Assembly (NCBI GenBank): GCA_030390025.1
Contig: CM059432.1
Coordinates: 26,352,001 to 26,416,000, forward strand
Source of the DNA: Squalus acanthias
Taxonomy: Eukaryota
Direction of reading: 5' to 3'
Length of the DNA stretch: 64,000 bases
A program made the position numbers and the translations under genes. This document shows, piece by piece, positions 7,125 to 35,820 of the stretch. The notes under the pieces were generated by a model. It was not told the origin of the DNA and ran no database searches. It saw only the letters and a program-made list of their open reading frames with translations. Within the stretch, counting starts at the first letter, position 1. The number at the start of each line of letters is the position of its first letter.

Positions 7125-7269
7125 TGACGTCATTCCATGGTGCAACGCCCTTGGGGCGCCCCGGAGCGGAAATTGAGTGGCGCCCCCTGCCTTACCGCCT
7201 GGCGCTTCCAACGACCGGAAGACTGGAACGTTATCAATCGGTGTGGGGCTGGGGGGGGCGCTATTTAAA
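7125..7269 (+). promoter_or_regulatory. Putative transposase promoter: CRE-like TGACGTCA (7125-7132) and TATA-like TATTTAAA (7262-7269)
   Basis: Both motifs are kept in all three A copies (TATA also at 18730 and 27280) and in related MITEs, about 200 nt upstream of the ATG. Function is inferred only. Confidence 0.5.
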
Positions 7270-7463
7270 GGGGGCCTCTTCCTGTCTTTTTCTGTGGTCG
7301 ACATTTATGCACCACTCGTTCTGAGAGAGAGAGAGAGATTCGGAGAGAGAGAGAGAGAGACTTCTACATTGACTCAACGCTTTGTGAGGTAGTTTTGCCT
7401 ATTCATCCTAACTTTGTTGCTACTTTAGTTGCTGTACCTCATTACTTTTCTGGCAAAGAGAAT

Positions 7464-8624
7464 ATGGGGGCTGCAATGATTGGGGGCGTCGTCCTGCTCC
7501 AGCTGAATCGGAGGATACCAAGATGCAGACAGAGAGTGGCAATGATGGCCAGACGGAGGAGGGCCATCAGGCGCATGTACAGGAGAGCTTACCCTCCCAG
7601 GGTATATCGTGAACAGCTCTCCTACATCCATATGTCCGAGGAGCTGTGTTTGCGAAGGCTGCGATTCAGCAAGGAGGTGGTCACTGAGCTCTGCCACCTG
7701 CTGCAGCCAGATCTGCAGCCTCAGCTGAGGTCCAGGACGTCTCTGTCGGTGGCAGTGAAGGTCACAGTGGCTTTGAACTTCTACGCCACTGGCTCATTCC
7801 AAGCTGCTGTTGGGGACCTCGCCAATATCTCCCAGTTTGCGGTGCATCGCTGCATCTGGCAGGTCACCAATGCCCTCTTCAGAAGGAGACGAGACTTCAT
7901 CTCTTTCCCTATGACCCCAGACAAGCAGCGTGACCGTGCTCTGGGCTTTGCGAGGGTAGCGGGCTTCCCCATGGTGCAGGGCACCATTGACTGCACGCAT
8001 GTGGCTTTGCGTGCTCCGCGAGAGAATGCAGAGGAATTCAGGAACAGAAAGGGGTTCCATTCCTTGAATGTGCAGTTGGTCTGTGACCACAGACAGGTGA
8101 TACTCGCTGTCAATGCCCACTATCCGGGCAGCTGCCACGATGCTTTCATCCTGCGCCAGACTACTGTGGCAGAAGTTTTCGAGGCACCGCATCAGCCAGT
8201 TGGTTGGCTTCTGGGGGACAAGGGGTACGCATTGAGCACCTGGCTGATGACACCGCTCCGTACGCCAAACAACCCTGCTGAGCTGCGGTACAATGAAAGC
8301 CATCAAGCAACCAGGAACATTATTGAGCGCACAATCGGCGTGCTGAAACAACGGTTCCGCTGTCTGGACCATTCCGGAGGAGCCCTGCAGTACTCGCCTG
8401 AGCAAGTTTCGAACTTCGTAGTCGTGTGCTGCATGTTGCACAACATGGCAATCCTCAGGACCCAGCCAATGCCACCAGGCCTTGTAGCACCACCAGAGGA
8501 GGAGGAGGAAGAGGAGGAAGAGGACGAGGACGATGATCATCAGCAGCACCAAGGCAGGAGGGCGGCCCACAATGGTCAAACTGCAAGGGCCGTCCGTCAA
8601 CGACTAATAGCAAGCCACTTCTAG
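7464..8624 (+). CDS. Harbinger/PIF DDE transposase (HARBI1-like family), 386 aa, open
   Basis: First ATG at 7464; catalytic motifs GTIDCTH, GDKGY, IERTIGVLKQRF; CCMLHN; acidic tail; no stops. Confidence 0.95.
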   Translation: MGAAMIGGVVLLQLNRRIPRCRQRVAMMARRRRAIRRMYRRAYPPRVYREQLSYIHMSEELCLRRLRFSKEVVTELCHLLQPDLQPQLRSRTSLSVAVKVTVALNFYATGSFQAAVGDLANISQFAVHRCIWQVTNALFRRRRDFISFPMTPDKQRDRALGFARVAGFPMVQGTIDCTHVALRAPRENAEEFRNRKGFHSLNVQLVCDHRQVILAVNAHYPGSCHDAFILRQTTVAEVFEAPHQPVGWLLGDKGYALSTWLMTPLRTPNNPAELRYNESHQATRNIIERTIGVLKQRFRCLDHSGGALQYSPEQVSNFVVVCCMLHNMAILRTQPMPPGLVAPPEEEEEEEEEDEDDDHQQHQGRRAAHNGQTARAVRQRLIASHF

Positions 8625-8918
8625 GGCCCCTGCCATTGCTACAAACACTAATCAACCCAGCACGCAACCCCTAAGCCGGCCAAGGCACCAATAATTCCAA
8701 CCACCAGCCATGTATATTTTGAATACAGAAACTTATTTATTTTACAAACTCTGTGTGTGTCAATTCCTCATGACAAACTCATAGAAATAAACACAAAAAA
8801 ACAGTCAATAACATAACTGGTTCTCACAACCTGGAGATAATGTCCAAAACACTAAACAAAAGTTGGACCATGAACCTCGGCCTTTAATAAAAAAATGACC
8901 AGCATTTTGGCACACCTC

Positions 8919-10688
8919 CTACTTTTTGCCCTTCGAGGGTGATCTCCTTCCCTTGCGCACTTCCCCCCTTCTAACCCTACTGCTCCTCCGTAATGGGACC
9001 TCAGTGGCTGCAGCAAGGCTGGTGGAAGGCTGCTGCTCGTCAGACCCTGACACTGCAGATGCCCCTGAAGGACGGCCTCGACCACTTCTGGGCCTGGAGG
9101 GCCCGGCTGCAGACTGCACCAACTCTGCATGGGCGGCAGCAGTCTGTCCTACAGGCGGTGGCAAGTGCAGTGGAGAAGTGACAGTGTTGGCAGCAGGAAT
9201 GCTGTCATCGTGAGAGAGGCCAGCAACTCCCTGCTCGCCCGACACACTGGCACTCCCACGGGGCAGCACTTCAGCATCCGGAGCAATTTGCCGGAGAACA
9301 GATTGCTGGCCTGCTGCGGCGCGGTGACAGCCCCGGGGACATGTGCACGAACCATCGAGGTTGGCAGCAGTCTGTGCTCGCGTGGCCTCCATCTGAGTCT
9401 GTATGAGAGCAGTCAGAGGTGGGATCACGGCAGCCAGTGACTGAATTGCAGCACTAAGCGTTAGTGTGGCATCCGCCTGTGCTACAGCGAAGTGCTCCAC
9501 ACTCCTTGCCAGTGACTCAATGCAATCGGGCACCCTTCCCACTGCACCCATGAGCTCAGTGTGCATGCCCACCGCCTGGGTGTTCATTTCTGCAATCAGC
9601 CGCTCCTCCTCTGCGTCCATTGCAGTAGGAGTGTCTGGCATACTCTCCCTCTGGGGAGAAGGCCCCCGTTCTTCCCTACCGCCCCCCATGGCGTTGCTGC
9701 AGCCCGCTGGGTCCTGGAGCTTCACCATCATCAGCCCCTTCCCCCCTGCTCCCCTCCGGGGAAGGCGTGTTCCCAGTGTGGGCATGGGCTTCCTCGGGAG
9801 AGGGTGGCACTGATGCTCTGGCTTCCTCTTCCTCCTCAGCTGCAGCATCACTCCCAGTGGCAGCTTCAGGGCCCGTCTCCTCAGCTGGTGAATCACCATC
9901 TGAAACCAGGGAGGTACAAGAGTGGCTTTAGCGTGAGGACAGGGTGGCAGTAAGGGAGGAATAAGTGCAGCGAGTTAGCAAGTTGGATTGAAAGTGTCAA
10001 AGGCTGGTATTGTGAGGGACAAGTGGAAGACAAGAGGACAAAAAGGTGATGACCTTACCATTGCTGTCCACAACGGGGTCGGCGTCTCCAGTGGCGACGG
10101 GACCGATCACCCGGCTTGCCACAATCCTGTGGACGCGCTCCTCCAGATCGCTGAGGGGTTGCAGCTGAAGCCGCCCTCCACCCGTCCGTTGCTGCTGTCT
10201 CCGATTATGAGCCAGCTTAGCCTGCAAGAAAAAGGACAGCATCTGAGTAAATATACAGCCATGGTCTTGCCTGATGTGCCTCCCATAGGTGAATAGCCCT
10301 TACTGTATGCAAAGTGTGGAATGTGCGTGTGTGTTTGATGAAAGGGCCATAGGTGTTGGATGAGTGTTGTGCATTGGGGTTTTAAGACCCTCTGGCCATA
10401 GAGTGAGGTTGAGATGGAGGGATGGAGAGGTATTGAGAAAAAGCCACTCACCCTGACGACCCGAGTGAGGTCGTTGAACTTTTTGCGGCATTGAGTATGG
10501 GTCCTGGGCACCATGCTCCTGGAGGAGACGCTCTGAGCCAGCTCCCTCCACACTCTTCTGAACTCGCGTGGCAAAGGCCTCCTGCCACTCTCAGGGAACA
10601 GCATACATCGTCTGCGCTCCACTGCATCAACCAGAGCATCCAAGGCCCGCTCGGTGAAGCGATGAGCGCGTACTCTCACCCTCTCCAT
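8919..10688 (-). pseudogene. Myb/SANT-like gene of Harbinger A copy 1; exons 10688-10452, 10221-10059, 9899-8919; +1 frameshift near 9680
   Basis: FTERALDALV..W..RTHTQCRKKFNDL trihelix/Myb signature; canonical GT-AG introns; one extra base in the C-run near 9680 relative to copy 3. Confidence 0.85.
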
Positions 10689-12742
10689 GCTTGGCAGCAA
10701 AATGGATTACAGGTCTCTCCAGGCTGAGATTCAAGGCTGCAATGAGCAGGGTGTGGCTGGGGAGCAAGTGGCCCCCCCCCCGCTTTAAGAAGTGTCCGGC
10801 GCCAGTGTGTCTGTGTTCCCTCGCTAACTGGCAGCAGCTGCGCTGCGCTCGTGCGCTGAGTTAGCGCCTCACTCCTTGGCCTTTGCGCCTTAAGAGAGGT
10901 GTGCAGCGCCTGCTTTAGCGCTCCACTCACCTCCCGGGGCGGTAAAAGTGAAGTTTCCTGTCAGTGCCGATAATTAGCGCCAGGCGCTAATATTTGCGTC
11001 CAGACGATATTTGCGCCCCAAATGGGGCGCGACCTAATTTCTACCCCTAAGGGTTAATTTTATCATAGCCAAATCAACCTAACCCGCACATTTTTGGACT
11101 GTGGGAGGAAACCGGAGCACCCGGAGGAAACCCACGCAGACACGGGGAGAATGTGCAAACTCCACACAGACAGTCACCCGAGGTCAGATTCGAACCCGGG
11201 TCTCTGGCGCTGTGAGAAGAATGCGTCGTGCCAGTATCTGGGTGAGACATGCAGTGATGCGGTATCTTCTTCCTCCTCCTCTTCTCCTGCCTCACTCTCT
11301 ACGGTACCCTCAGGGACAGGCTGCTCAGGTGCTTGCTCATTATCTGAAATCATAAAGCACAAGAGTTGGGTTAAGGTGAGGGGAGGAGGGCAGGAAAGGA
11401 GAAATGCTGGAAAATGCGAAATGCTTGTGGGGTGAGGGGGATGTGAGAAGAAGGAGTAGGGATGAACAACCGTTGTTGTCCCCAAGGGGGTCAACGTCAC
11501 CAGTGGCCATGGCACCCACCACCTGGCGCCCTATAATCTGCAACACTCGAGTCTCTAGTTCAGACAGTGGTTGGGTGTCGGCTTGTCCCCCACTGGCGCT
11601 CCTGTTCCCTCTTGTTGTGATCCACTTTGGCCTGCAAGAGAAAGGAAAGTGTGTGAGTGAGTGTGGGGCAATGTGTTTGGGTGATGTGCCTGCCATAGTT
11701 GAAAAGCTGTCATTGTGTGCAAGGTGTGAGATGTGGGTGTGAGTGTTGTAGGTAGAGATTGTTGGTTGGTGAGTGCTGGGGATGTGGTGCTTTGGGCAGT
11801 GTGTGAAGACTGTGGTTCAGATCGTGGTATGTGTCATTTGTTGAAGCATTCGCTCACCCTGACCACCCAATTGAGGTTGTTAAATTTCTTCCTGCACTGT
11901 GTGTGGGTCCTGGGGACCACAGTGCTGCCCAAGACGTGCTGTGCTACCTCCCTCCACATGGAGTGAAAGACTTGCAGTGAGGACCTCCTGCCACTTGTCA
12001 GCTAGAGCACTGCCCTCCGTCTCTCCACAGCGAAAACCAATGCTTAATTGCAGAATCTGCTGGGCTCGCTCCCTGGGGCGTGGATCTACCATGAGTACAG
12101 CTGCTTCAGTCCTCTGGCTCCTTCTCCTTGACCTGCTGTTGCTTGCTGAGGCAGCTACACAGCCAGCAATGCTGAGTACGAGGTTCTGCAGCATTAATGA
12201 ACCTCCCCTTTAAGAACTGGAAAAAGCCTGTGGCAATCATGACTTGCGATTAGACTGCACCTGATATTGGTCCACCCTTTGAGTGTAATGCCAATGACCT
12301 TGGGCTTAAAGACTTGAATTAGCGCTCCAATCATTTCTTTGAGCAGTGAGCATGAATTTTCTGTGCAGTCAAAAGCATTAGCGCCTGGCGCAAATTCTCC
12401 AACTTTTCTAATTTTACTGTCCATTCCTGGGCTCTAATGAATTTCTAGCTCAAGATTCTCTTCATTTACTCTAACTAAACCCTTCATAATTTTAAACACC
12501 TCTATCAAATCTCCTGTTAGCCTTCTTTGCTCTAAGGAGAACAACACCAGCTTCTCCAGTCTATCCACGTAACTGTAATCCCTCATTCCTGGAACCATTC
12601 TAGTAAATCTCTTCTGTACCCTCTCCAAAGCCCTCATGTCCTTCCTAAAGTGTGGTGCCCAGAATTGGACACAATACTCCAGCTGGGGCTGAACTAGTGT
12701 TTTATGTAGGTTTAGCATAACTTCCTTGCTTTTGTACTCTAA

Positions 12743-13634
12743 GGGGTAGAAATTAGGTCGCGCCCCATTTGGGGCGCAAATATCGTCCGGACGCAAATAT
12801 TAGCGCCTGGCGCTAATTATCGGTACTGACAGGAAACTTCACTTTTACCGCCCCGGGAGGTGAGTGGAGCGCTAAAGCAGGCGCTGCACACCTCTCTTAA
12901 GGCGCAAAGGCCGAGCAGTGAGGCGCTAACTCGGAGCGCTGGCGAAGCTCATGTAATGTCAGTCAGCAATGGAACACACACACAATGGCACGGGCCAGTT
13001 CTTAAAGGGGATGGTTAATCTTGCTTTCCATCCACATCCTGTTCATTGCTGCCTTGAATCTCGGCCTGGAGAGACTTGCACATCAAATGTGCTGGAAAGA
13101 ACAATGGAGCGTACCAGGCAAAGAGCTCAGAGTGCAGCTCCCACAGTCTCTGCTAAATCGATACAAGGAATGGCAAATCAAAATGAACCTGCAAAGTGCT
13201 GCTCAGTACCCAAAATCCTTCACACAACGTTGAATCTCTCCAGAAGTCTCTCCCTCTCTCTCTCAGAATGCGTAGTTCAAAAATGCCACCAACAATAAAA
13301 GACAGGAAGAGGCCCCCTTTAAATAGCGCCCCCCCCAGCCCCACAGCGATTGATAGCGTTCCAGTCTTCTGGTCGTTGGAAGCGCCAGGCGGTAAGGCAG
13401 GGGGCGCCACTCAATTTCCGCTACGGGGCGCCACAAGGGCGTTGCACCATGGAATGACGTCACAATCTGCGCGCGCAGGTGGTCGCAGCGGTAAGTTTTA
13501 GCGCCGCCGCACAATCTCAAGTTAAGTTCTCGAGCGGCGCAAACATCGCTGCGCCCGGGCGTTAGCGGCTTTGCGCCCCATTAGCGCCCTCTTAAGGCGC
13601 TAACGGGAGGCGCAACCAAGTGAATTTTTACCCC
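12743..13634 (-). mobile_element. Non-autonomous Harbinger (MITE, 892 bp) with family A termini
   Basis: TIRs GGGGTAGAAATT / AATTTTTACCCC; TSD TAA at 12740-12742 and 13635-13637; no transposase. Confidence 0.95.
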
Positions 13635-17282: not shown

Positions 17283-18233
17283 ATGGCAGGAGAGCTCCAC
17301 CCCGTGATATGCTCCTCCTGCTATATGTGGGAAATCAGGGATGCTTCCTGTGTCCCTGACGACCATGTGTCTGGGAACTGTATCCAGCTGCAGCTACTGA
17401 CGGACCGCATTGCGGCGCTGGAGCTGCGGATGGATGCATATTGGAGCATTTGCGACGCTGAGAACGTCGTGGATAACACGTTTAGTGAGGTGGTCACACC
17501 GCAGATAAACAGTGTACAGGCAGGAAGTGAATGGGTGACCACCAGGCAGAGTAAGAGGTGCAGGCAGGTAGTGCAGGGGTCCCCTGTGGCCATCCCCCTC
17601 TCAAACAGATATACCACTTTGGATGCTGTTGGGGGGGATGACTTATCACGGGAAAGCAGCAGCAGCCAACTTCCTGGCACCATGGGTGGCTCTGCTGCAC
17701 AGGCTGGGAGGAAAAAGTGTGGAAGAGCTATAGTGATAGGGGATTCAATTGTAAGGGGAATAGATAGGCATTTCTGCGGCCGCAAACGAGACTCCAGGAT
17801 GGTGTGCTGCCTCCCTGGTGCAAGGGTCAAGGACGTCTCGGAGCGGCTACGGAACATTTTGGAGGGGGAGGGCGAACAGCCAGTTGTCATGGTGCACATA
17901 GGCATCAACGATATAGGTAAAAAACGGGATGAGGTCCTAAAAGCAGAATATAGGGAGTTAGGAGGTAAATTAAAAAATAGGACCTCAAAGGTAGTAATCT
18001 CAGGTTTGCTAGCAGTGCCACGTGCTACTCAGAGTAGAAATTGGAGGATATTTCAAATGAATACGTGGCTAGAGGAATGGTGCAAGGGGGAGGGATTCAA
18101 ATTCCTTGGACATTGGAACCGGTACTGGGGGAGGTGGGACAAGTACAAACGGGACGGTGTGCACCTGGGCAGGGCCGGGACCGATGTCCAAGGGGGAGTG
18201 TTTGCTAGTGCTGTTGGGGAGGGTTTAAACTAA
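17283..18233 (+). CDS. CR1 ORF1p: N-terminal Cys motif, coiled coil, SGNH esterase domain; 316 aa, open
   Basis: CSSC motif, heptad leucines, and SGNH blocks IGDSIVR, HIGINDIG, DGVHL. Confidence 0.9.
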   Translation: MAGELHPVICSSCYMWEIRDASCVPDDHVSGNCIQLQLLTDRIAALELRMDAYWSICDAENVVDNTFSEVVTPQINSVQAGSEWVTTRQSKRCRQVVQGSPVAIPLSNRYTTLDAVGGDDLSRESSSSQLPGTMGGSAAQAGRKKCGRAIVIGDSIVRGIDRHFCGRKRDSRMVCCLPGARVKDVSERLRNILEGEGEQPVVMVHIGINDIGKKRDEVLKAEYRELGGKLKNRTSKVVISGLLAVPRATQSRNWRIFQMNTWLEEWCKGEGFKFLGHWNRYWGRWDKYKRDGVHLGRAGTDVQGGVFASAVGEGLN

Positions 18234-18931
18234 AGTGGCAGGGGGTTGGGAACCTGAGCAGGGAGACAGAGGAAAGGGAAACAAGGATAAAAGCTAAAGA
18301 GAGGAAGGAGAAAAACAAAAGCAGAATGCAAAGAACTCAACAGTTTAAATCAAACATGGTCACAGTAAATAATAATTCATATAGTTCTGAGAGCGTTAAA
18401 AAAACAAACCTGAAGGCTTTGGGGTAAAAATTCAGTTGGTTGCGCCTCCCGTTAGCGCCTTAAGAGGGCGCTAATGGGGCGCAAAGCCGCTAACGCCTGG
18501 GCGCAGCGATGTTTGCGCCGCTCGGGAACTTAACTAGAGATTGTGCGGCGGCGCTAAACCTTACCGCTGCGACCACCTGCGCGCGCAGATTGTGACGTCA
18601 TTCCATGGTGCAACGCCCTTGTGGCGCCCCGGAGCGGAAATTGAGTGGCGCCCCCTGCCTTACCGCCTGGCGCATCCAACGACCGGAAGACTGGAACGCT
18701 ATCAATCGCTGTGGGGCTGGGGGGGGCGCTATTTAAAGGGGGCCTCTTCCTGTCTTTTTCTGTGGTCGACATTTTTGCACCACTCGTTCTGAGAGAGAGA
18801 GAGAGATTCGGAGAGAGAGAAAGAGAGACTTCTGCATTGACTCAACGCTTTGTGAGGTAGTTTTGCCTACTGATCCTAACTTCATAAGTACTTTAGTTGC
18901 TGTCCTTCATAACTTTGCTTGCAAAGAGACT

Positions 18932-20092
18932 ATGGGGGCTGCACTGATTGGGGGCGTCGTCCTGCTCCAGCTGAATCGGAGGACACAGAGACGCAAAGAG
19001 AGAGTGGCAATGATGGCCAGACGGAGGAGGGCCAACAGGCGTATGTACAGGAGAGCTTACCCTCCCAGGGTATATCGTGAACAGCTCTCCTACCTTCATA
19101 TGTCTGAGGAGCTGTGTTTGCGAAGGCTGCGATTCAGCAAGGAGGTGGTCACTGAGCTCTGCCACCTGCTGCAGCCAGATCTGCAGCCTCAACTGAGGTC
19201 CAGGACGTCTCTGTCGGTGGCAGTGAAGGTCACAGTGGCTCTCAACTTCTACGCTACTGGCTCATTTCAAGCTGCTGCTGGGGACCTCGCCAATATCTCC
19301 CAGTTCGCGGTGCATTGCTGCATCCGGCAGGTCACAAATGCCCTCTTTAAAAGGAGACGAGAGTTCATCTCTTTCCCCATGACCCCAGACAAGCAGCGTG
19401 ACCGCGCTCTGGGCTTTGCGAGGGTAGCGGGCTTCCCCATGGTGCAGGGCGCCATTGACTGCACACATGTGGCTTTGCGTGCTCCGCATGAGAATGCCGA
19501 GGAATTCCGGAACAGAAAGGGGTTCCATTCCTTGAATGTTCAGTTGGTCTGTGACCACAGACAGCTGATACTCGCTGTCAATGCCCACTATCCTGGCAGC
19601 TGCCACGATGCTTTAATCCTGCGCCAGACTACTGTGGCAGAACTTTTCGAGGCACCGCATCAGCCAGTTGGTTGGCTTCTCGGGGACAAGGGGTATGCAT
19701 TGAGCACCTGGCTGATGACACCGCTCCGTACGCCCAACACCCCTGCTGAGCTGCGGTACAATGAGAGCCATCAAGCTACCAGGAACATAATTGAGCGCAC
19801 AATCGGCGTGCTGAAGCAACGGTTCCGCTGTCTCGACCATTCTGGAGGAGCCCTGCAGTACTCGCCTGAGCGAGTATCGAACTTCGTAGTCGTGTGCTGC
19901 ATGTTGCATAACATGGCAATCCTCAGGACCCAGCCAATGCCACCAGGCCTTGCAGCACCACCAGAGGAGGAGGAGGAAGAGGAGGAAGAGGACAAGGAGG
20001 ATGATCATCAGCAGCACCAAGGCGGGAGGGCGGCCCACAATGGTGAAACTGCAAGGGCCGTCCGTCAACGGCTAATAGCAAGCCGCTTCTAG
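18932..20092 (+). CDS. Harbinger DDE transposase, 386 aa, open
   Basis: GAIDCTH, GDKGY and IERTIGVLKQRF motifs; no stops. Confidence 0.95.
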   Translation: MGAALIGGVVLLQLNRRTQRRKERVAMMARRRRANRRMYRRAYPPRVYREQLSYLHMSEELCLRRLRFSKEVVTELCHLLQPDLQPQLRSRTSLSVAVKVTVALNFYATGSFQAAAGDLANISQFAVHCCIRQVTNALFKRRREFISFPMTPDKQRDRALGFARVAGFPMVQGAIDCTHVALRAPHENAEEFRNRKGFHSLNVQLVCDHRQLILAVNAHYPGSCHDALILRQTTVAELFEAPHQPVGWLLGDKGYALSTWLMTPLRTPNTPAELRYNESHQATRNIIERTIGVLKQRFRCLDHSGGALQYSPERVSNFVVVCCMLHNMAILRTQPMPPGLAAPPEEEEEEEEEDKEDDHQQHQGGRAAHNGETARAVRQRLIASRF

Positions 20093-20402
20093 GGCCCCTG
20101 CTGTGGAAATGGCTTCTGCCATTGCTAACAACATCAATGAACCCAGCACGCAACCCCTAAGCCGGCCAAGGCACCAATAATTCCAACCACCAACCATGTA
20201 TATTTTGAATACAGAAACTTATTTATTTTACAAACTCTGTGTGTGTCAATTCCTCATGACAAACTCAGAAATAAACACAAAAAAACAGTCAATAACATAA
20301 CTGGTTCTCACAACCTGGAGATAATGTCCAAAACACTAAACAAAAGTAGGACCATGAACCTCGACCTTTAATAAAAAAATGACCAGCATTTTGTCACACC
20401 TC

Positions 20403-22276
20403 CTACTTTTTGCCCTTCGAGGGTGATCTCCTTCCCTTGCGCACTTCCCCCCTTCTAACCCTACTGCTCCTCCGTAATGGGACCTCAGTGGCTGCAGCAA
20501 GGCTGGTGGAAGGCTGCTGCTCGTCAGACCCTGACACTGCAGATGCCCCTGAAGGACGGCCTCGACCACTTCTGGGCCTGGAGGGCCCGGCTGCAGACTG
20601 CACCAACTCTGCATGGGCGGCAGCAGTCTGTCCTACAGGCGGTGGCAAGTGCAGTGGAGAAGTGACAGTGTTGGCAGCAGGAATGCTGTCATCGTGAGAG
20701 AGGACAGCAACTCCCTGCTCGCCCGACACACTGTCACTCCCACGGGGCAGCACTTCAGCATCCAGAGCAATCTGCTGGAGAACAGATTGCTGGCCTGCTG
20801 CGGCGCGGTGAGAGCCCCGGGGACATGTGAACGAACCATCGAGGTTGGCAGCAGTCTGTGCTCGCGTGGCCTCAATCTGAGTCTGCATGAGAGCAGTCAG
20901 AGATGGGATCACGGCAGCCAGTGACTGAATTGCAGCACTAAGCGTTAGTGTGGCATCCGCCTGTGCTACAGCGAAGTGCTCCACACTCCTTGCCAGTGAC
21001 TCAATGCATTCGGGCACCCTTCCCACTGCACCCATGAGCTCAGTGTGCATGCACACCGCCTGGGTGTTCATTTCTGCGATCAGCCGCTCCTCCTCTGCGT
21101 CCATTGCAGTAGGAGTCTCTGGCCTACTCTCCCTCTGGGGAGAAGGCCCCCGTTCTTCCCTACCCCCATGGCATTGCTGCAGCCCGCTGGGTCCTGGAGC
21201 TTCACCCTCATCAGACCCTTCCCCCCTGCTCCCCTCCAGGGAAGGCGTGTTCCCAGTGTGGGCATGGGCTTCCTCGGGAGAGGGTAGCACTGATGCTCCA
21301 GCTTCCTCTTCCTCCTCGGCTGCAGCTTCACTCCCAGTGGCAGCTTCAGGGCCCGTCTCCTCAGCTGGTGAATCACCATCTGAAAGCAGGGAGGTACAAG
21401 AGTGGCTTTAGCGTGAGGACAGGGTGGCAGTAAGGGAGGAATAAGTGCAGCGAGTTAGCAAGTTGGATTGAAAGTGTCAAAGGCTGGTGTTGTGAGGGAC
21501 AAGTGGAAGGACAGAGGACAAAAAGGTGATGACCTTACCATTGCTGTCCAGAACGGGGTCGGCGTCTCCAGTGGCGACGGGACCGATCACCCGGCTTGCC
21601 ACAATCCTGTGGACGCGCTCATCAAGATCGCTGAGGGGTTGCAGCTGAGGCCGCCCTCCACCTGTCCGTTGCTGCTGTCTCCGATTATGCGCCAGCTTGG
21701 CCTGTAAGAAAAAGGACAGCATCTGAGTAAATATACAGCCATGGTCTTGCCTGATGTGCCTCCCATAGGTGAATAGCCCTTACTGTATGCAGCCATGGTC
21801 TTGCCTGATGTGCCTCCCATAGGTGAATAGCCCTTACTGTATGCAGCCATGGTCTTGCCTGATGTGCCTCCCATAGGTGAATAGCCCTTACTGTATGCAA
21901 AGTGTGGAATGTGTGTGTGTGTTTCATGAAAGGGCCATAGGTGTTGGATGAGTGTTGTGCATTGGGGTTTTAAGACCCTCTGGCCATAGAGTGAGGTTGA
22001 GATGGAGGGATGGAGAGGTATTGAGAAAAAGCCACTCACCCTGACGACCCGAGTGAGGTCGTTGAACTTTTTGCGGCATTGAGTATGGGTCCTGGGCACC
22101 ATGCTCCTGGAGGAGACGCTCTGAGCCACCTTCCTCCACACTCTTCTGTACTCGCGTGGCAAAGGCCTCCTGCCACTCTCAGGGAAGAGTATACATCTTC
22201 TGCGCTCCACCGCGCCAACCAGAGCATCCAAGGCCCGCTCGGTGAAGCGATGAGCTCGTTCTCTCACCCTCTCCAT
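20403..22276 (-). CDS. Myb/SANT-like DNA-binding protein, spliced, predicted 458 aa; exons 22276-22040, 21701-21539, 21379-20403
   Basis: GTGAGT and GTAAGG donors with CAG acceptors; intron phases 0 and 1; 237+163+977 = 1377 nt open to the stop; N-terminal Myb/trihelix domain and basic C-terminus (RRSSRVRR..KGKK). Confidence 0.85.
21736..21897. repeat. 54-bp tandem repeat x3 in intron 1 of the Myb-like gene
   Basis: Unit CAGCCATGGTCTTGCCTGATGTGCCTCCCATAGGTGAATAGCCCTTACTGTATG. Confidence 0.97.
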
Positions 22277-25200
22277 CCTTGGCAGCAAAATGCATTCACA
22301 GGTCTCTCCAGGCCGAGATTCAAGGCTGCAATGAGCAGGGTGTGGCTGGGGAGCAAGTTGGCCCCCCCCCGCTTTAAGAAGTGGCCGGCGCCAGTGTGTC
22401 TGTGTTCCCTCGCTAACTGGCAGCAGCTGCGCTGCGCTCGCGCGCTGAGTTAGCGCCTCACTGCTCGGCCTTTGCGCCTTAAGACAGGTATGCAGCGCCT
22501 GATTTAGCGCTCCACTCACCTCCCGGGGCGGTAAAAGTGAAGTTTCCAGTCAGTGCCGATAATTAGCGCCAGGCGCTAATATTTGCGTCCAGACGATATT
22601 TGCGCCCCAAATGGGGCGCGACCTAATTTTTCCCCCTTTGTGTCTTAATGCAAGGAGCATTCGGAACAAGGTGGATGAATTAGCTGCGCAAATAGAGGTA
22701 AATGAATACAATTTGATTGGGATTACAGAAACATGGCTCCAGGGTGGCCAAGGCTGGGAACACAACATCCAGGGTTATTCAATATTTAGGAAAGATAGGC
22801 TAAAAAGAAAGGGAGGTGGGGTAGCATTGCTGGTTAAAGAGGGGATTAACACAATTAAAAGGAAGGATATTAGCTCTGATGATGCGGAATCCGTATGGGT
22901 AGAACTGAGAAATAACAAGGGGCAGAAAACGTTAGTGGGAGTGGTATATAGACCTCCAATCAGTAATACGGAGGTTGGGGACGGCATTAAAAGGGAAATT
23001 AGAGAAGCATGCAGTAAGGGCACAGCAGTCATCATGGGTGACTTTAATTTACATATAGATTGGGCTAACCAAATTAGTAAAAATACTGTGGAGGAGGAAT
23101 TCCTAGAATGTTTACGGAATGGTTTTCTGGAACAATATGTCGAGGAACCAACTAGAGATCAGGCCATCTTAGACTGGGTATTATGTAACGAGAAAGGATT
23201 AATTAGCAATCTTGTTGTACGAGGCCCCTTGGGTCAGAGTGATCATAATATGATAGAATTCTTCATTAGGATGGAGAGTGAAGTAGTTGAATCAGAGACT
23301 AGGGTCCTGAATTTAAATAAAGGAAACTATGATGGTATGAGGCGCGAATTGGGTAGGATTGATTGGGGAATGTCACTCAAGGGGTTGACGGTGGACAGTC
23401 AATGGCAAACATTCAAAGACTGCATGGATGAACTACAGAATTTGTTCATCCCAGTGTGGCATAAGAATAAAACAAAAATGGTGACTCAACCGTGGCTAAC
23501 AAGGGAAATTAGGGATAGCATAAGATTCAAGGAGAGGGCATATAAATTGGCCAGAAAAAGCGGTAACCCTGAGGATTGGGAGCAGTTTCGGATTCAACAA
23601 AGGAGGACAAAGGGATTAATTAAGAAGGGGAAAATAGAATATGAAAGTAAGCTTGCTGGGAACATAAAAACTGACTGTAAGAGCTTTTATAGATATGTGA
23701 AGAGAAAAAGATTAGTGAAATCAAGTGTAGGTCCCTTGCAGTCAGAAGCGGGGCAAGTTATAATGGGGAACAAAGAAATGGCAGACCAATTAAATGCATA
23801 CTTTGGTTCTGTCTTCACAAAGGAGGACACAAATAACCTCCCAGAGATGTTGGAGAACATACGATCTGATGAAAGGGAGGAACTGAAAGAAATCAGTATT
23901 TGCAGGGAAATGGTGTTAGGGAAATTGACAGGATTGAAGGCCGATAAATCCCAGGGCCTGATAATCTACATCCTAGGGTACTTAAGGAAGTGGCCCTAGA
24001 AATAGTAGATGCATTGCTGATCATCTTCCAACATTCGATGGAATCTGGAACTGTACCCATGGATTGGAGGGTAGCTAATGTTACCCCACTATTCAAAAAG
24101 GGTGGTAGAGAGAAAGCGGGGAATTACAGACCGGTAAGCCTGACATCGGTAGTGGGGAAAATGCTAGAGTCCATTATAAAGGATGTAATAGCTGAGCACT
24201 TGAAAAACAGTGACAGGATCGGACAAAGTCAACATGGATTTACAAAAGGTAAATCGTGCTTGACTAATCTACTGGAATTTTTTGAGGATGTAACTGGGAA
24301 AATAGATAAGGGAGAACCAGTGGATGTGGTGTATTTGGACTTTCAAAAGGCTTTCGATAAGTTCCCGCATAAGAGATTAGCATGTAAAGTTAAGGCACAT
24401 GGGATTGGGGGCAAGTTATTGACTTGGACAGAGAACTGGTTGGCGGACAGAAAGCAGAGAGTAGGAATTAATGGGTCTTTTTCCAAGTGGCAAGCAGTGA
24501 CTGGTGGGGTACCACAGGGATCGGTCCTTGGACCCCAACTATTCACAATATACATTAATGATCTAGATAAGGGAACTAAATGTAATATCTCCAAGTTTGC
24601 AGATGACACAAAGCTGGGTGGGAGTGTGTGCTGCGAGGAGGATACCGAGAAACTCCAGGATGATTTGGACAGGTTGGGTGAGTGGGCAGAAGCGTGGCAG
24701 ATGCAATATAACGTGGATAAATGCGAGGTTATCCACTTTGGTGTCAAAAACAGAAAGGCAACTATTATCTGAATGGCAATAGATTGGGAGAAGGGGAAGT
24801 GCAACGAGAGCTGGGTGTGCTTGTGCACCAGTTGCTGAAAGTAAGCATGCAGGTGCAGCAGGCGGTGAAGAAGGCAAATGGTATGTTGGCCTTCATAGCG
24901 AAAGGGTTTGAGTATAGGAACAGGGATGTCCTGCTGCAGTTGTACAGGGCCTTGGTGAGACCACACCTTGAATACTGTGTGCAGTTTTGGTCGCCTTATC
25001 TGAGGAAGGATGTTCTTGCCATGGAAGGAGTTCAGCGAAGATTCACAAGGCTGATACCTGGGATGGCAGGAATGACATATGAGGAGAGATTGGGTCGATT
25101 GGGCTTATACTCGCTGGAGTATAGAAGAATGAGAGGGGATCTCATCGAAACATGTAAAATTCTGACAGGTCTGGACAAACTAGATGCAGGAAGAATGTTC

Positions 25201-26430: not shown

Positions 26431-27481
26431 TAGCCTTTATGAGATAAAGATGTATTCAGGCAGGCTTACCGCCTTCAGGAGGTGACAAACAGAATGCGGC
26501 CCTACCAAAAAAAAATAAAGCATAGTGGAGAATCTATGCAGAAAGAGCCTACATCTGATCTGAATTGAACACGATTGTCAGACCAATCAGACCACAAATA
26601 GAGGAAGTCTCAATTCTAAATGAAGGTATGATATTCTTCTTTCCAAAAGCTTTCTGATTATAATTTACCTTTAAGTAGGTTGCCTGCTTCATTAAACATG
26701 GAGTGGGATTAAGAAAAGATGAAACTAATCTCCAACAGGCTTAAGATATGCAGACAGACTCAAACCTACAACATTGAACCTACTAAAAGGCAAAAATCCT
26801 TCCAATGCTGGTTCAGTAAAAAATAAATAAGGATAAGGGGAGCTTGAGAGTTCTATTGTCTAAATGGAGATAAAGTAATTGACATTGTGTTACTGAATCA
26901 TTGCCTACAGTAAGTCTCTCTGAAATTATAAAAAGACCGAGGAGTGACTTGTAATTAAATAATAGATCAGGGGGGAAAAATTCACTTGGTTGCGCCTCCC
27001 GTTGGCGCCTTAAGAGGGCACTAATGAGGCGTTAAGCCGCTAACGCCCGGGCGCAGCGATGTTTGCGCCGCTCAAGAACTTAACTTGAGATTGTGCGGCG
27101 GCGCTAAAACTTACTGCTGCGACCACCTGCGCGCGCAGATTATGACGTCATTCCATGGTGCAACGCCCTTGGGGCGCCCCGGAGCGGAAATTGAGTGGCG
27201 CCCCCTGCCTTACCGCCTGGCGCTTCCAACGACCGGAAGACTGGAACGCTATCAATCGGTGTGGGGCTGGGGGGGGCGCTATTTAAAGGGGGCCTCTTCC
27301 TGTCTTTTTCTGTGGTCGACATTTATGCACCACTCGTTCTGAGAGAGAGAGAGAGATTCGGAGAGAGAGAGAGAGAGACTTCTACATTGACTCAACGCTT
27401 TGTGAGGTAGTTTTGCCTATTCATCCTAACTTTGTTGCTACTTTAGTTGCTGTACCTCATTACTTTTCTGGCAAAGAGAAT

Positions 27482-28642
27482 ATGGGGGCTGCACTGATTG
27501 GGGGCGTCGTCCTGCTCCAGCTGAATCGGAGGATACCGAGACGCAGACAGAGAGTGGCAATGATGGCCAGACGGAGGAGGGCCATCAGGCGCATGTACAG
27601 GAGAGCTTACCCTCCCAGGGTATATCGTGAACAGCTCTCCTACATCCATATGTCCGAGGAGCTGTGTTTGCGAAGACTGCGATTCAGCAAGGAGGTGGTC
27701 ACTGAGCTCTGCCACCTGCTGCAGCCAGATCTGCAGCCTCAGCTGAGGTCCAGGACGTCTCTGTCGGTGGCAGTGAAGGTCACAGTGGCTTTGAACTTCT
27801 ATGCCACTGGCTCATTCCAAGCTGCTGTTGGGGACCTCGTCAATATCTCCCAGTTTGCGGTGCATCGCTGCATCCGGCAGGTCACCAATGCCCTCTTCAG
27901 AAGGAGACGAGACTTCATCTCTTTCCCTATGACCCCAGACAAGCAGCGTGACCGTGCTCTGGGCTTTGCGAGGGTAGCGGGCTTCCCCATGGTGCAGGGC
28001 GCCATTGACTGCACGCATGTGGCTTTGCGTGCTCCGCGAGAGAATGCAGAGGAATTCAGGAACAGAAAGGGGTTCCATTCCTTGAATGTGCAGTTGGTCT
28101 GTGACCACAGACAGGTGATACTCGCTGTCAATGCCCACTATCCGGGCAGCTGCCACGATGCTTTCATCCTGCGCCAGACTACTGTGGCAGAAGTTTTCGA
28201 GGCACCGCATCAGCCAGTTGGTTGGCTTCTGGGGGACAAGGGGTACGCATTGAGCACCTGGCTGATGACACCGCTCCGTACGCCAAACACCCCTGCTGAG
28301 CTGCGGTACAATGAAAGCCATCAAGCAACCAGGAACATTATTGAGCGCACAATCGGCGTGCTGAAACAACGGTTCCGCTGTCTGGACCATTCCGGAGGAG
28401 CCCTGCAGCACTCGCCTGAGCAAGTTTCGAACTTCGTAGTCATGTGCTGCATGTTGCACAACATGGCAATCCTCAGGACCCAGCCAATGCCACCAGGCCT
28501 TGTAGCACCACCAGAGGAGGAGGAGGAAGAGGAGGAAGAGGACGAGGACGATGATCATCAGCAGCACCAAGGCAGGAGGGCGGCCCACAATGGTCAAACT
28601 GCAAGGACCGTCCGTCAACGACTAATAGCAAGCCGCTTCTAG
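27482..28642 (+). CDS. Harbinger DDE transposase, 386 aa, open
   Basis: Catalytic motifs intact; 10 amino-acid differences from copy 1 by manual comparison. Confidence 0.95.
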   Translation: MGAALIGGVVLLQLNRRIPRRRQRVAMMARRRRAIRRMYRRAYPPRVYREQLSYIHMSEELCLRRLRFSKEVVTELCHLLQPDLQPQLRSRTSLSVAVKVTVALNFYATGSFQAAVGDLVNISQFAVHRCIRQVTNALFRRRRDFISFPMTPDKQRDRALGFARVAGFPMVQGAIDCTHVALRAPRENAEEFRNRKGFHSLNVQLVCDHRQVILAVNAHYPGSCHDAFILRQTTVAEVFEAPHQPVGWLLGDKGYALSTWLMTPLRTPNTPAELRYNESHQATRNIIERTIGVLKQRFRCLDHSGGALQHSPEQVSNFVVMCCMLHNMAILRTQPMPPGLVAPPEEEEEEEEEDEDDDHQQHQGRRAAHNGQTARTVRQRLIASRF

Positions 28643-28936
28643 GGCCCCTGCCATTGCTACAAACACTAATCAACCCAGCACGCAACCCCTAAGCCGGCCA
28701 AGGCACCAATAATTCCAACCACCAGCCATGTATATTTTGAATACAGAAACTTATTTATTTTACAAACTCTGTGTGTGTCAATTCCTCATGACAAACTCAT
28801 AGAAATAAACACAAAAAAATAGTCAATAACATAACTGGTTCTCACAACCTGGAGATAATGTCCAAAACACTAAACAAAAGTTGGACCATGAACCTCGGCC
28901 TTTAATAAAAAAATGACCAGCATTTTGTCACACCTC

Positions 28937-30920
28937 CTACTTTTTGCCCTTCGAGGGTGATCTCCTTCCCTTGCGCACTTCCCCCCTTCTAACCCTACTG
29001 CTCCTCCGTAATGGGACCTCAGTGGCTGCAGCAAGGCTGGTGGAAGGCTGCTGCTCGTCAGACCCTGACACTGCAGATGCCCCTGAAGGACGGCCTCGAC
29101 CAGCTCTGGGCCTGGAGGGCCCGGCTGCAGACTGCACCAACTCTGCATGGGTGGCAGCAGTCTGTCCTACAGGCGGTGGCAAGTGCAGTGGAGAAGTGAC
29201 AGTGTTGGCAGCAGGAATGCTGTCATCGTGAGAGAGCTAGCAACTCCCTGCTCGCCCGACACACTGGCACTCCCACGGGGCAGCACTTCAGCATCCGGAG
29301 CAATCTGCCGGAGAACAGATTGCTGGCCTGCTGCGGCGCGGTGACAGCCCCGGGGACATGTGAACGAACCATCGAGGTTGGCAGCAGTCTGTGCTCGCGT
29401 GGCCTCCATCTGAGTCTGTATGAGAGCAGTCAGAGGTGGGATCACGGCAGCCAGTGACTGAATTGCAGCACTAAGCGTTAGTGTGGCATCCGCCTGTGCT
29501 ACAGCGAAGTGCTCCATACTCCTTGCCAGTGACTCAATGCATTCGGGCACCCTTCCCACTGCACCCATGAGCTCAGTGTGCATGCACACCGCCTGGGTGT
29601 TCATTTCTGCAATCAGCCGCTCCTCCTCTGCGTCCATTGCAGTAGGAGTGTCTGGCATACTCTCCCTCTGGGGAGAAGGCCCCCGTTCTTCCCTACTCCC
29701 CCCATGGCGTTGCTGCAGCCCGCTGGGTCCTGGAGCTTCACCATCATCAGCCCCTTCCCCCCTGCTCCCCTTCGGGGAAGGCGTGTTCCCAGTGTGGGCA
29801 TGGGCTTCCTCGGGAGAGGGTGGCACTGATGCTCTGGCTTCCTCTTCCTCCTCAGCTGCAGCATCACTCCCAGTGGCAGCTTCAGGGCCCGTCTCCTCAG
29901 CTGGTGAATCACCATCTGAAAGCAGGGAGGTACAAGAGTGGCTTTAGCGTGAGGACAGGGTGGCAGTAAGGGAGGAATAAGTGCAGCGAGTTAGCAAGTT
30001 GGATTGAAAGTGTCAAAGGCTGGTGTTGTGAGGGACAAGTGGAAGGACAGAGGACAAAAAGGTGATGACCTTACCATTGCTGTCCAGAACGGGGTCGGCG
30101 TCTCCAGTGGCGACGGGACCGATCACCCGGCTTGCCACAATCCTGTGGACGCGCTCCTCCAGATCGCTGAGGGGTTGCAGCTGAAGCCCCCCTCCACCTG
30201 TCCGTTGCTGCTGTCTCCTATTATGAGCCAGCTTAGCCTGCAAGAAAAAGGACAGCATCTGAGTAAATATACAGCCATGGTCTTGCCTGATGTGCCTCCC
30301 ATAGGTGAATAGCCGTTACTGTATGCAGCCATGGTCTTGCCTGATGTGCCTCCCATAGGTGATTAGCCCTTACAATATGCAGCCATGGTCTTGCCTGATG
30401 TGCCTCCCATAGGTGAATAGCCCTTACAATATGCAGCCATGGTCTTGCCTGATGTGCCTCCCATAGGAGAATAGCCCTTACTGTATGCAGCCATGGTCTT
30501 GCCTGATGTGCCTCCCATAGGTGAATAGCCCTTACTGTATGCAAAGTGTGGAATGTGTGTGTGTGTTTGATGAAAGGGCCATAGGTGTTGGATGAGTGTT
30601 GTGCATTGGGGTTTTAAGACCCTCTGGCCATAGAGTGAGGTTGAGATGGAGGGATGGAGAGGTATTGAGAAAAAGCCACTCACCCTGACGACCCGAGTGA
30701 GGTCGTTGAACTTTTTGCGGCATTGAGTATGGGTCCTGGGCACCATGCTCCTGGAGGAGACGCTCTGAGCCACCTCCCTCCACACTCTTCTGAACTCGCG
30801 TGGCAAGGGCCTCCTGCCACTCTCAGGGAACAGCATACATCGTCTGCGCTCCACTGCGTCAACCAGAGCATCCAAGGCCCGCTCGGTGAAGCGATGAGCG
30901 CGTTCTCTCACCCTCTCCAT
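28937..30920 (-). pseudogene. Myb/SANT-like gene of copy 3; exons 30920-30684, 30237-30075, 29915-28937; 1-nt deletion near 29236 alters the C-terminus
   Basis: Same splice sites as copy 2; GAGAGAGCTAG here versus GAGAGAGGCCAG in copy 1. Confidence 0.85.
30272..30541. repeat. 54-bp tandem repeat x5 in intron 1 of the Myb-like gene
   Basis: Same unit as 21736-21897 with a few substitutions. Confidence 0.97.
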
Positions 30921-31621
30921 GCTTGGCAGCAAAATGGATTCACAGGTCTCTCCAGGCTGAGATTCAAGGCTGCAATGAGCAGGGTGTGGCTGGGGAGCAA
31001 GTGGCCCCCCCCGCTTTAAGAAGTGTCCGGCACCAGTGTGTCTGTGTTCCCTCGCTAACTGGCAGCAGCTGCGCTGCGCTCGCGCGCTGAGTTAGCGCCT
31101 CACTCCTTGGCCTTTGCGCCTTAAGACAGGTGTGCAGCGCCTGCTTTAGCGCTCCACTCACCTCCCGGGGCGGTAAAAGTGAAGTTTCCTGTCAGTGCCA
31201 ATAATTAGCGCCAGGCGCTAATATTTGCGTCCGGACGATATTTGCGCCCCAAATGGGGCGCGACCTAATTTCTACCCCCAGGTACTCATACAGACCAAAA
31301 GATGCCAGGTTGAATTCCTGGTCTGTACTGAGTTAACTGATCTCAGCTAGGGCAAGAGTTGGGACATTAGAATTGGCCTCAGAACCCTGGACCCTGGAGA
31401 AATTCAGCTGTGGCTCCCACTCTTGCTTGGTTTCCAGTGACCCCCTTCTGCAAATTGTGGACATCGGGTGAAAGCAGGGCATTGTCAAATAGCTGCTGGC
31501 AATCACTATTCTGCTCACAGATGAGGAATGGTCACTTAAGCTCCTGTGGAACCATACACCGTCAAGAGTTTCCACCTTCAGGGAAAGAGGCTAGAAAAGA
31601 GACAGATTGGGGAAAACAGCT

Positions 31622-33115: not shown

Positions 33116-33775
33116 TTACGGTAGGTTTGGGATGGAAAATATTCTTGTAATATATTATTTTTCTGTAACACTTGCCTTTTTGTCACATGTGGAGGAAGAA
33201 CTAGTTGGTATGAGAAGGCATTATAATTATATTTGTGAAGATTTCATCTTCACTGTGTTACCACGATAAGACCAAGCACTTCCTGTTCTTGTATAATTGT
33301 CCCTTTCTATTGAATAATTTCACCTTTCAGGTAAAGTTTGGCAACTGTTATGTTGGAGTATGATCAGTATTGGGCTCAGCAGTAGTACACCTCATGGTCA
33401 AATAGCCTGAAAACATTCTGAGGAAGAAATTCATTATAGCCCAGGAATGGGCGGTAACTTTTGAAAAGTTTGAGAACTAGTGCCAGGTGCTAATGCTTCA
33501 GACTGCATGCAAAATTCAGTCTCATTGCACAAAGAAAGGATTGGAATGCTAAATCAAGTGCTAATGGCCTAGCTCTGTGGCATTAAACTCGAAGCACTGA
33601 CCAATATCAGATGCAATCTAATCACAAGTCATCATTGCCACAGGCTCTTTCCAGTTCTTAAAGGGGAGATTGATTAATGCTGCAGAACCTCATTCTCATC
33701 ATTGCTGGCTGTGCAGCCATCTCAGCCAGCAGCAGCAGATCAAGGAGGAGGAGCCTGATGACTCAAGCAGCCGTA

Positions 33776-35655
33776 ATGATGGCAGATCCACGCCCCAGGG
33801 AGAGAGCCCGCAGATTCTGTGAACTTGCATCGGAGGCGTTGGTGATCGCAGTGGAAAGATGGATGGCGGTGCTCTACCCGACAAGTGACAGGGGGCCCAC
33901 GCCGTAAGACTTCCGCACCATGTGGAGGGAGGTAGCCCAGCATGTCTCGGACAGCACTGTGGTCCACAGGACCCACACACAGTGCAGGAAGAAATTTAAC
34001 GATCTCACTCGGATGGTCAGGGTGAGTCAATGCTTCAACAAATGCTGCATACCACCATCTGAACCACAGTCTACACACACTGCACAAAGCACCACACCCC
34101 CAGCACTCACCCACCAATAATCTCTACCTACCAACACTCACACCCACATCTCACACCTTGCACACAATGACAGCTATTCAACTATGGCAGGCACATCACT
34201 CAAATACATTGCTCCACACTCACTCACACACTTTCCTTTCTCTTGCAGGCCAAGGTGGCTCACAACAGGAGGAGCAGGAGCGCACAGGCGGGGGACAAGC
34301 TGGCACCCAACCACTGTCTGAACTAGAGACTCGAGTGCTGCAGATTATTGGGCGCCAGGTATTGGGTGCCGTGGCCACTGGCAACGTTGACCCCCTTGGG
34401 GACAACAATGGTATGTTCATCCCTACTCCTTCTTCTCACATCCCACTTCCCCCTCACCCCACAAGCCTTTCGCACTTGCCAGCTAATCATGCTGTATGCA
34501 TGCATTTCTCCCTTCCTGCCCCCCTCCCCTCACCTTAACCCAAATCTTGTGCCTTTATGCTTTCAGATAATGAGCAAGCACCTGAGCAGCCTGTCCCTGA
34601 GGGCACTGTAGAGAGTGAGGTGAGAGAAGAGGAGGAGGAAGAACAGACCGCATCACTGCATGTCTCACCCGCAGGCACCAGCTCAGATATTGGCACTATG
34701 CGTTCTTTAGATGCTAGTATAGTAGCGGGATCTGCACAGGGTGATGCACCGGGGACGAGCAGGCTGCAGCAAGGCCAGGGGGAAAGGGTAGCCCAGGAGC
34801 CAGCTCCCCAGAGGGCGAGTTCACGCACGAGTTCTGCTGCACAGGACTCAGATGAGGAGCTCAATGGGGAGGTGTTTAGAAGAAGAGTGATGGGCGTGCA
34901 CACGGAGATGACAGGTGCAATGGGAAGGGTGCCCAAGAGCCTCTCGGCAATGGTAAGGAGCGTGGAGGAGTCCACCTGCAACATTGCACAGAGCTCTGCG
35001 CACACCATGGAGACCATCATTTCCAGTCTGCAAAGGATGTTAGATTCCCAGACAGACTGTAGCGACCCAGACCTGATGCCGCATGTGATGGGCGATCTGG
35101 CATCTTCCATTGCAGCACATGCATAAGCAACGCAACGTCTTAGTGCTGTAATGCAGTCTATGCTTGGTGGCATCCAATCTCAGACTGCTCTCATGCAGTC
35201 TCAACTTGAAACAACACAAGCTCTGACTGTTGCCACCGTTGACCGGGGTTTTCAGCAGGCCAGCAATCTGTGCTCCAACAGATTAGTAGTGATGCTGAGG
35301 TGCTGCCCACGGGGAGTGGCAGTGGGTCAGTGGAGCAGGAAGCTGCAGTCCTCTCTCAGGATGACAGAATTTCTGCTCCCACCACTGCCACTCTGCCATT
35401 GCCCTTGTGCTGCCTGACATCCAGCCAGCCCAGACTGCTGCCGCCCATGCTGAGGTGGTACAGTCGACAGCCGGGACTTCCAGGCCCAGAGCTGGTCAAG
35501 GGCGTCCTCCAAGGCCATCTGAAGTCTCCCACACGGACACTCAGCAGCCTTCCACCAGCCGTGCTGCAACCACTGGGCCAATACTTTGTAGGAGCACTAG
35601 AGTAGGCAAAGGCACAGTAACGACAGGCACTAAGGGATTGCACAAGGGTGAATAG
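33776..35655 (+). pseudogene. Myb/SANT-like gene of Harbinger B copy 2, three exons, with stops and frameshifts
   Basis: MADPRPRERARRF..; WREVAQ..RTHTQCRKKFNDL; donor near 34022, acceptor near 34248, donor 34411, acceptor 34567. Confidence 0.85.
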
Positions 35656-35820
35656 GTAATATTGTTGTTGTAAATATGTGTTCACTGATTATTGATAAAT
35701 GTATTCATTCAGTTTGGAATATTTTGTGGTGTGTCTCATTTCAGCTTTGCGCTGTGATATGGCCTGCGACAGGGATGGCATGATGGGGATGTGGTGAGCA
35801 ACGCGGATCTGGGGTTTAAT

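Follow-up and report, generated by a model that had tools for sequence, protein, structure and literature searches.

The zebrafish system Harbinger3_DR/Harbinger3N_DR combines a DDE transposase with a Myb-like gene and a target-site duplication (TSD) of 3 bp, and both proteins are needed for transposition in Harbinger3_DR and in Ping/Pong, according to the available text of the respective reports (PMC2836001, PMC9710019, PMC9392472). The same combination is found in the element considered here, a Harbinger transposon (the 18421 copy, named after its first base) in a 64,000-nucleotide stretch of the Squalus acanthias genome (GenBank assembly GCA_030390025.1, contig CM059432.1, positions 26,352,001-26,416,000 of the forward strand), which is called the window below and whose own numbering is used throughout. 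Harbinger3_DR was reconstructed, as a preliminary description of the window had noted and as the accessible part of PMC2836001 states, and was shown to be active, whereas the 18421 family is known from natural sequences with both genes open. The 18421 copy is probably one member of an abundant two-gene PIF/Harbinger family that spread in a past burst and is now decaying neutrally, with frames that are still open owing to low divergence.

A natural vertebrate Harbinger with both genes open is not new, because Harbinger-Snek has been published (PMC8437027); the accessible text of that paper gives 269 fully intact copies in Laticauda colubrina and, for the intact copy in L. laticaudata, expression of both genes. 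Judged from the same text, Harbinger-Snek and the 18421 family share a natural vertebrate burst, many copies in which both genes are intact, short non-coding derivatives and inferred activity. Harbinger-Snek, however, was horizontally transferred and makes up 8-12% of the genome, whereas the 18421 family makes up at least about 0.4% and has relatives in sharks and rays at 47-66% identity. In the available portion of PMC4482050, two intact open reading frames (ORFs) are reported for 88 PIF/Harbinger, 11 NuwaI (mostly bony fish) and 22 NuwaII families, and the available part of PMC13668399 describes an active Harbinger in a nematode. For cartilaginous fish, the accessible part of PMC9179366 reports no Harbinger in the elephant shark and asks that other members of the group be checked; the available text of the whale shark and grey reef shark genome papers lists the superfamily and describes no family. 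A literature search on sharks and on intact vertebrate copies, with most subscription journals as well as Dfam and Repbase outside its coverage, found no description of the family and no paper in which a natural Harbinger from a vertebrate had been assayed. The superfamily is known, and the 18421 family is likely to be uncatalogued in print.

The 18421 element is a full-length two-gene cut-and-paste transposon of the PIF/Harbinger (PHIS) type in which both frames are open (Table 1). It shows the features of PHIS elements, namely a Harbinger-type DDE transposase, a Myb/SANT-like second gene, short terminal inverted repeats (TIRs) starting with G, and a 3-bp TSD. The preliminary description had given its span and the TTT duplication correctly, and the duplication is evident from empty sites: a copy of the interrupted long interspersed nuclear element (LINE) at 45902-46106 has both flanks of the element fused with one TTT, and 5,755 genome matches are likewise empty. 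The 12-bp TIRs, which start with GGGG and have the same ends across copies, are present as described, but in the 18421 copy they are imperfect (11/12). Assignment to the two-gene PIF/Harbinger type in a cartilaginous fish agrees with the relatives of the transposase, since the 75 closest are from sharks and rays, at no more than 66% identity, and the first bony fish stands at rank 76; these protein relatives gave no support for horizontal transfer. Within the terminal 400 bp, with both ends summed, the 7-mers GCGCTAA and GGCGCTA are each found seven times, and both are absent from the 3.3-kb interior. By analogy with Harbinger3_DR and Ping/Pong, the Myb-like protein would bind such subterminal repeats and the transposase, carrying the latter into the nucleus and to the element ends, and the DDE enzyme would then cut at the TIRs and insert the element into a palindromic site, of which 3 bp are duplicated. 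The proteins probably act in trans, and frameshifted copies and MITEs (miniature inverted-repeat transposable elements) could then use any competent copy.

Both genes have the structure that had been predicted for them. The 386-residue transposase is open and keeps its catalytic acidic residues (D176, D226, D252 and E288), which an AlphaFold2 model (mean predicted local distance difference test score 80.9, with a confident RNase H-like core) places on strand and helix positions matching the description in the accessible text of PMC4482050. No solved relative of the transposase came up when the PDB was searched with a profile (one chance match, E=0.5), and Foldseek with the model returned none at E<=0.001, only weak rows for DDE transposases and integrases. 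In the Myb-like gene, three exons of 237, 163 and 977 nt with GT-AG intron ends join to encode 458 residues and a stop. Its intron 1 is supported by homology, because an alignment of 75 residues (63 bits) with a sawshark protein becomes one of 109 residues (97 bits) once it is removed; searches for Myb homologues gave one match in the first and none in the second. A 54-bp tandem repeat in intron 1 (21736-21899) differs in copy number between elements and is the main source of length variation.

The closest proteins found are shark and ray models named 'putative nuclease HARBI1' (among them P0001 and P0002), which are 61-66% identical to the transposase. In several models of this name, either the catalytic E is missing or other acidic residues are, so that these models are decayed copies or domesticated genes, and none is 90% identical to the 18421 family. 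Three near-identical pairs of transposase-like proteins from distant sharks and rays (P0004/P0005, P0024/P0026 and P0042/P0043) have lost catalytic residues and look like domesticated cartilaginous-fish Harbinger genes. A sawshark gene model of 523 residues (P0007) has a Myb/SANT domain fused to a Harbinger transposase, which may be a prediction artefact or reflect a head-to-tail gene layout.

The family is abundant. A DNA search of the 3.7-Gb genome gave 3,035 first-look candidates, and the 40 that were scored were all 99-100% identical. Exact matches to a marker around a G-run in exon 3 of the Myb-like gene numbered 2,061 for the 5-G form (the type of the 18421 copy), 851 for the in-frame 8-G form and 276 for the 9-G form (+1); these counts are lower bounds, the 18421 copy itself mismatches the pattern, and their sum of at least 3,188 copies of 4.2 kb corresponds to a minimum of about 13 Mb, or about 0.4% of the assembly. 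Among the 39 best matches besides the 18421 copy, a set biased toward intact transposases, the TSD matches in 36, the transposase is open in 36, the Myb-like gene in 25 and both genes in 23. Two position-ordered samples were also taken, one of 40 consecutive 5-G matches on contig C1 (the first, near the contig start, was skipped) and one of 20 consecutive 8-G matches (L070, open in both genes and already sampled, was skipped). Both genes are open in 9/40 and 9/20 of these copies, and seven of each nine also have complete ends and a matching TSD; a matching 3-bp TSD is present in 28 of the 40 5-G copies. Extrapolation to the genome gives about 460 (95% range 220-790) and about 380 (200-580) both-open copies, respectively, or roughly 800 in all. 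Overall, both genes are open in 49 of the 141 copies examined.

The two sister copies in the window (6953 and 26971) belong to a second, A-type subfamily, because they differ by about 3.9% from the subfamily of the 18421 copy and by 1.3% from each other. Their transposases are open, as previously noted, and each has a net 1-nt shift in exon 3 of the Myb-like gene; the further proposal that each shift is private fails for the 6953 copy, whose shift has 276 exact matches in the genome. This +1 shift arises from a G-run of 9 instead of 8, which was found in 27 of 39 copies picked by likeness to that region. That biased sample had suggested that most A-type copies are frameshifted in the Myb-like gene, which the exact counts (276 versus 851) rule out. 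The -1 shift of the 26971 copy is absent from the 39 A-type copies examined, and L040, a B-type copy, has a 1-nt loss, possibly the same one, within that stretch of exon 3. The 8-G and 9-G lengths are intermixed on the tree, so that slippage on several occasions, or errors of assembly, would explain them equally well as a single frameshifted sublineage; the run of the 6953 copy, being broken by a C, is probably of genuine length. The 5-G run grew to 8 G, in frame, in the A-type subfamily (about 9680-9690 in the 6953 copy; L056-L088), and in the 276 9-G copies the Myb protein would end at 207 residues, the run being a built-in frameshift hot spot.

Decay of these copies appears to be neutral. 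For private changes, the ratio of nonsynonymous to synonymous substitution rates (dN/dS) is 0.90 in the transposase and 0.98 in the Myb-like gene of the best-match set. The position-ordered sets, of 38 and 17 copies once truncated ones are dropped, give values of 1.18 and 0.88, with stop codons close to the number expected under neutrality (13 observed against 10.3, and 3 against 4.8). Between the subfamilies, dN/dS is 0.17 for the transposase and 0.44 for the Myb-like gene, which together with the neutral private changes indicates that selection acted while the lineage transposed and ended after insertion. The tree of 128 full-length copies is star-like, with a median terminal branch of 0.61% among the position-ordered copies, and divergence counted from singletons is 0.29%, falling to 0.25% when CpG sites are left out. 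None of the 128 copies has a near-identical counterpart at an unrelated site; the only pairs with fewer than nine differences (L021/L022 and L096/L097) share their flanks and were therefore set aside as local duplicates rather than recent jumps. Because the private changes look neutral and such pairs are absent, the burst is likely to be millions of generations old. Open frames are expected from neutral decay at 0.3-0.6% divergence, and therefore are a poor sign of a special role.

Transcription was assessed from 19 listed sequencing runs, and eight organisms contain 0.53-0.71 of the sampled element words. Splice junctions were scored in eight runs, six of them RNA-like (a label that is the tool's guess) and two larger ones of unassigned kind (X14 and X17). 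Of the two junctions that had been proposed for an RNA check, 21539/21379 was seen and 22040/21701 was not. The former, corresponding to removal of the 159-nt intron 2 (CT..AC), is present in 5/6 RNA-like runs from two studies (X1, X4, X2, X3 and X7), the shorter side of the joint exceeding 30 bases in X2 only, and was not seen in RNA-like run X6 or in either X14 or X17. The latter, the intron 1 joint, was found in 0/8 runs, in which contigs show presence and not absence, so that this is no evidence of retention. Among the best 40 of 213 differences in RNA contigs, 32 lie inside the element and 24 of these match the A-type sisters. In X2 and X7, which belong to one study, the exon 2 donor is joined to the same foreign sequence (window 21539 / 10059), possibly a Myb exon spliced into host or other sequence. 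In X17 (organism H), long contigs with a flat depth of 15-20 cover window positions 9700-11100; 28 of 35 listed differences are bases of the 18421 subfamily and six more are unseen in the three window copies, which suggests that X17 holds a close variant, at low complexity, in another organism. Insertion polymorphism could not be read from empty-site reads, because the flanks are LINE sequence with thousands of empty copies.

It had been proposed that the 18421 copy itself is a naturally competent element that mobilizes the MITEs around it. The copy does have both frames, all catalytic residues, its splice sites and its TIRs, and it is the sole both-open copy of the three in the window. Nevertheless, this explanation is very improbable, and the copy does not stand out: both-open copies are common, its terminal branch is ordinary (0.66%), and it is without close offspring, its nearest neighbour among the 128 copies differing at 32 sites. 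It departs from the column majority at 16 amino acid residues, nine of them private. Two private changes fall on conserved sites and are found in the 18421 copy only among the 49 both-open copies. F228L lies two residues past D226, at a site that is aromatic (F/Y) in 105/113 homologues and F in 48/49 both-open copies; E49K in the Myb-like protein is a charge reversal at a site with E in 134/137 family copies, a conservation that rests on family copies and on two homologues with E or D. With F228L and E49K, the copy falls outside the definition of an autonomous element as one without private damage at conserved residues, and these changes are likely, judging from conservation, to make it a weakened donor. 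Most of the listed RNA-contig differences inside the element fit the sister subfamily, and the ends of the 12743 MITE are only 94% and 88% identical to those of the 18421 copy. The 18421 copy is thus ordinary and not a special master element, and the best candidates for activity are probably to be sought among other copies. That the gene pair is instead an immobile, domesticated pair of host genes of the HARBI1/NAIF1 type can practically be dismissed: the database names of its relatives and the loss of catalytic residues in some of them would fit such genes, but the TIRs and TSD, the thousands of dispersed copies with differing TSDs and the neutral private changes refute domestication.

Several points nevertheless weigh against a family that has only decayed since an ancient burst. 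At the epaulette shark mutation rate (7e-10 per generation, confidence interval 1.4-14.1e-10, in the available text of PMC10587355), a divergence of 0.35-0.61% gives 5-9 million generations (range 2.5-44 million), an age that is rough because the rate comes from another species and from five mutations with a tenfold interval, and because assembly error adds differences. Such errors may inflate private differences, and the duplicates L096 and L097 differ by 14 gaps in 4.7 kb. The 141 copies examined come from more than 3,000, so that a small, very young sublineage could escape. The family is likely to be transcribed and spliced, with contigs that carry mostly A-type bases and none that is assignable to the 18421 locus. 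The cleanest copies, L070 and L018, have only one and three amino acid differences from the column majority. L is found at site 228 in 3/113 homologues, and damage by F228L and E49K is argued from conservation. It is conceivable, though unlikely, that germ-line movement of the family continues through some both-open copies, not necessarily the 18421 copy, with frameshifted copies and MITEs carried along. The hundreds of both-open copies estimated, the 13/49 of them that are free of rare changes both at conserved sites of the transposase and at Myb residues 7-113, and the removal of intron 2 would agree with this, as would the youngest copies seen, with terminal branches of 0.05-0.1% and thus well under 5-9 million generations old, and the closest pair of MITEs, with two differences in 892 bp. 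However, identical pairs at unrelated sites number 0 among the 128 full copies and 0 among 210 MITE pairs, median private divergence is 0.25-0.6%, and the intron 1 joint, which is required for the full Myb protein, was not seen. Past spread followed by neutral decay is consequently still the better explanation of the 18421 family.

Insertion of the family is selective. Across 102 sites the target consensus is A-R-A-S-A-C-[WWW]-G-T-S-T-Y-T, in which the TSD triplet is WWW at 69, TWA at 23, TNA at 26 and CWG at 2. The 15-bp palindromic target of Harbinger3_DR, AAACACCWGGTCTTT, has flanks (AAACAC/GTCTTT) that fit the ARASAC/GTSTYT of this family, but its central triplet is CWG (available text of PMC3016246). 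The TWA duplication of the narrow PIF/Harbinger group and the CWG duplication of NuwaI (Han et al. 2015) are accordingly not characteristic of the family, and the 18421 copy itself has TTT. With NuwaII the family shares two ORFs, a TIR starting with GG and C/G beside the TSD, whereas the NuwaII duplication is TNA, according to the accessible part of PMC4482050; C before and G after the TSD occur together at 56/102 sites and the complete C|TNA|G at 10/102. The start of ORF2 of the interrupted LINE is a strong insertion hot spot: the LINE base of the 18421 copy is shared by 11 of the 127 copies fetched, which lie in both orientations and come from both subfamilies (one of the 11 is a duplicate, and a twelfth, partial match was left out), and genome-wide 707 exact matches to the site carry a family-type end while 5,755 are empty, an occupancy of about 11%. 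From its esterase-bearing ORF1, the LINE is presumably of the CR1 type.

The non-coding derivative at 12743 is also repeated in the genome, an internal 30-mer having 352 exact matches; both ends and a TSD were present in 20/20 consecutive copies, and no identical pair was found among 21 copies. Its ends show a similar identity to those of the sister copies as to those of the 18421 copy, against about 99% within the 18421 subfamily, and because of this low identity it is assigned to a related lineage; cross-mobilization would be plausible from the common TIR and subterminal motifs. Other MITE-like sequences with GGGG(G/T)ARAAATT ends and matching TSDs lie at 44770-45433 (TAT) and 49794-50578 (ATA), and another at 52635-53465 has mismatched flanks (CAT/ATA); further ends of the same type lie near 16735 and 61824. 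At least two decayed copies, at 3456 to about 12450 and at about 33400 to 37040, represent another, diverged Harbinger family (72-76% identity at the DNA level), and the 6953 copy is apparently nested within the first of them.

Table 1. Coordinates of the 18421 element, its host LINE and related elements in the window
Feature	Positions	Strand	Details
Harbinger element, complete	18421-22636		Two genes, convergent frames; matching ends and TTT on each side
Left TSD TTT	18418-18420	.	Single TTT at empty site, window 45902-46106 and genome
Left TIR GGGGTAAAAATT	18421-18432	+	11/12 bases pair with right TIR
Left subterminal region	18433-18760	.	Repeated GCGCTA/TAGCGC-type motifs; putative Myb-binding sites
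DDE transposase ORF, 386 aa	18932-20092	+	PF13359, E=3e-39
Myb-like exon 3	20403-21379	-	977 nt including stop
Myb-like intron 2	21380-21538	-	159 nt, GT-AG; removed in 5/6 RNA-like runs
Myb-like exon 2	21539-21701	-	163 nt; longer sawshark-homologue alignment when joined to exon 1
Myb-like intron 1	21702-22039	-	338 nt, GT-AG; 54-bp tandem repeat, variable copy number
Myb-like exon 1	22040-22276	-	237 nt; Myb/SANT-like domain, PF13873, E=2e-9; private E49K
Right TIR, minus-strand reading GGGGGAAAAATT	22625-22636	-	11/12 bases pair with left TIR
Right TSD TTT	22637-22639	.	Equals left TSD
Host LINE, esterase-type ORF1	17283-18233	+	PF13472
Same LINE, endonuclease and reverse transcriptase	22640-24772	+	Begins at insertion site; PF03372, PF14529, PF00078
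Sister copy, A-type subfamily	6953-11047	+	TSD TAA; Myb +1 frameshift, 9-base G-run
Sister copy, A-type subfamily	26971-31278	+	TSD CAG; Myb -1 frameshift, exon 3
MITE-like non-coding derivative, 892 bp	12743-13634	-	TSD TAA; related lineage

The single 18421 copy therefore matters little, and what counts is the family, a large cartilaginous-fish Harbinger with many both-open copies that answers the request made in the accessible part of PMC9179366. Because old copies are preserved by slow mutation, open frames in sharks are a weak sign of activity. Should the cleanest natural copies turn out to transpose in cells, they could serve at once as reagents for studying a two-component transposase without a close solved structure and its 15-bp target. 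It is a lesser possibility that several hundred natural two-gene Harbingers persist in this genome and that some of them can still jump, with a 15-bp target preference that directs much of their insertion to one base of an abundant LINE. If that is true, copies like L018 and L070 would be the first vertebrate Harbinger to be shown transposing without reconstruction, and the family would provide a natural insertion tool with a sequence preference and a model of DNA transposon persistence where mutation is slow.

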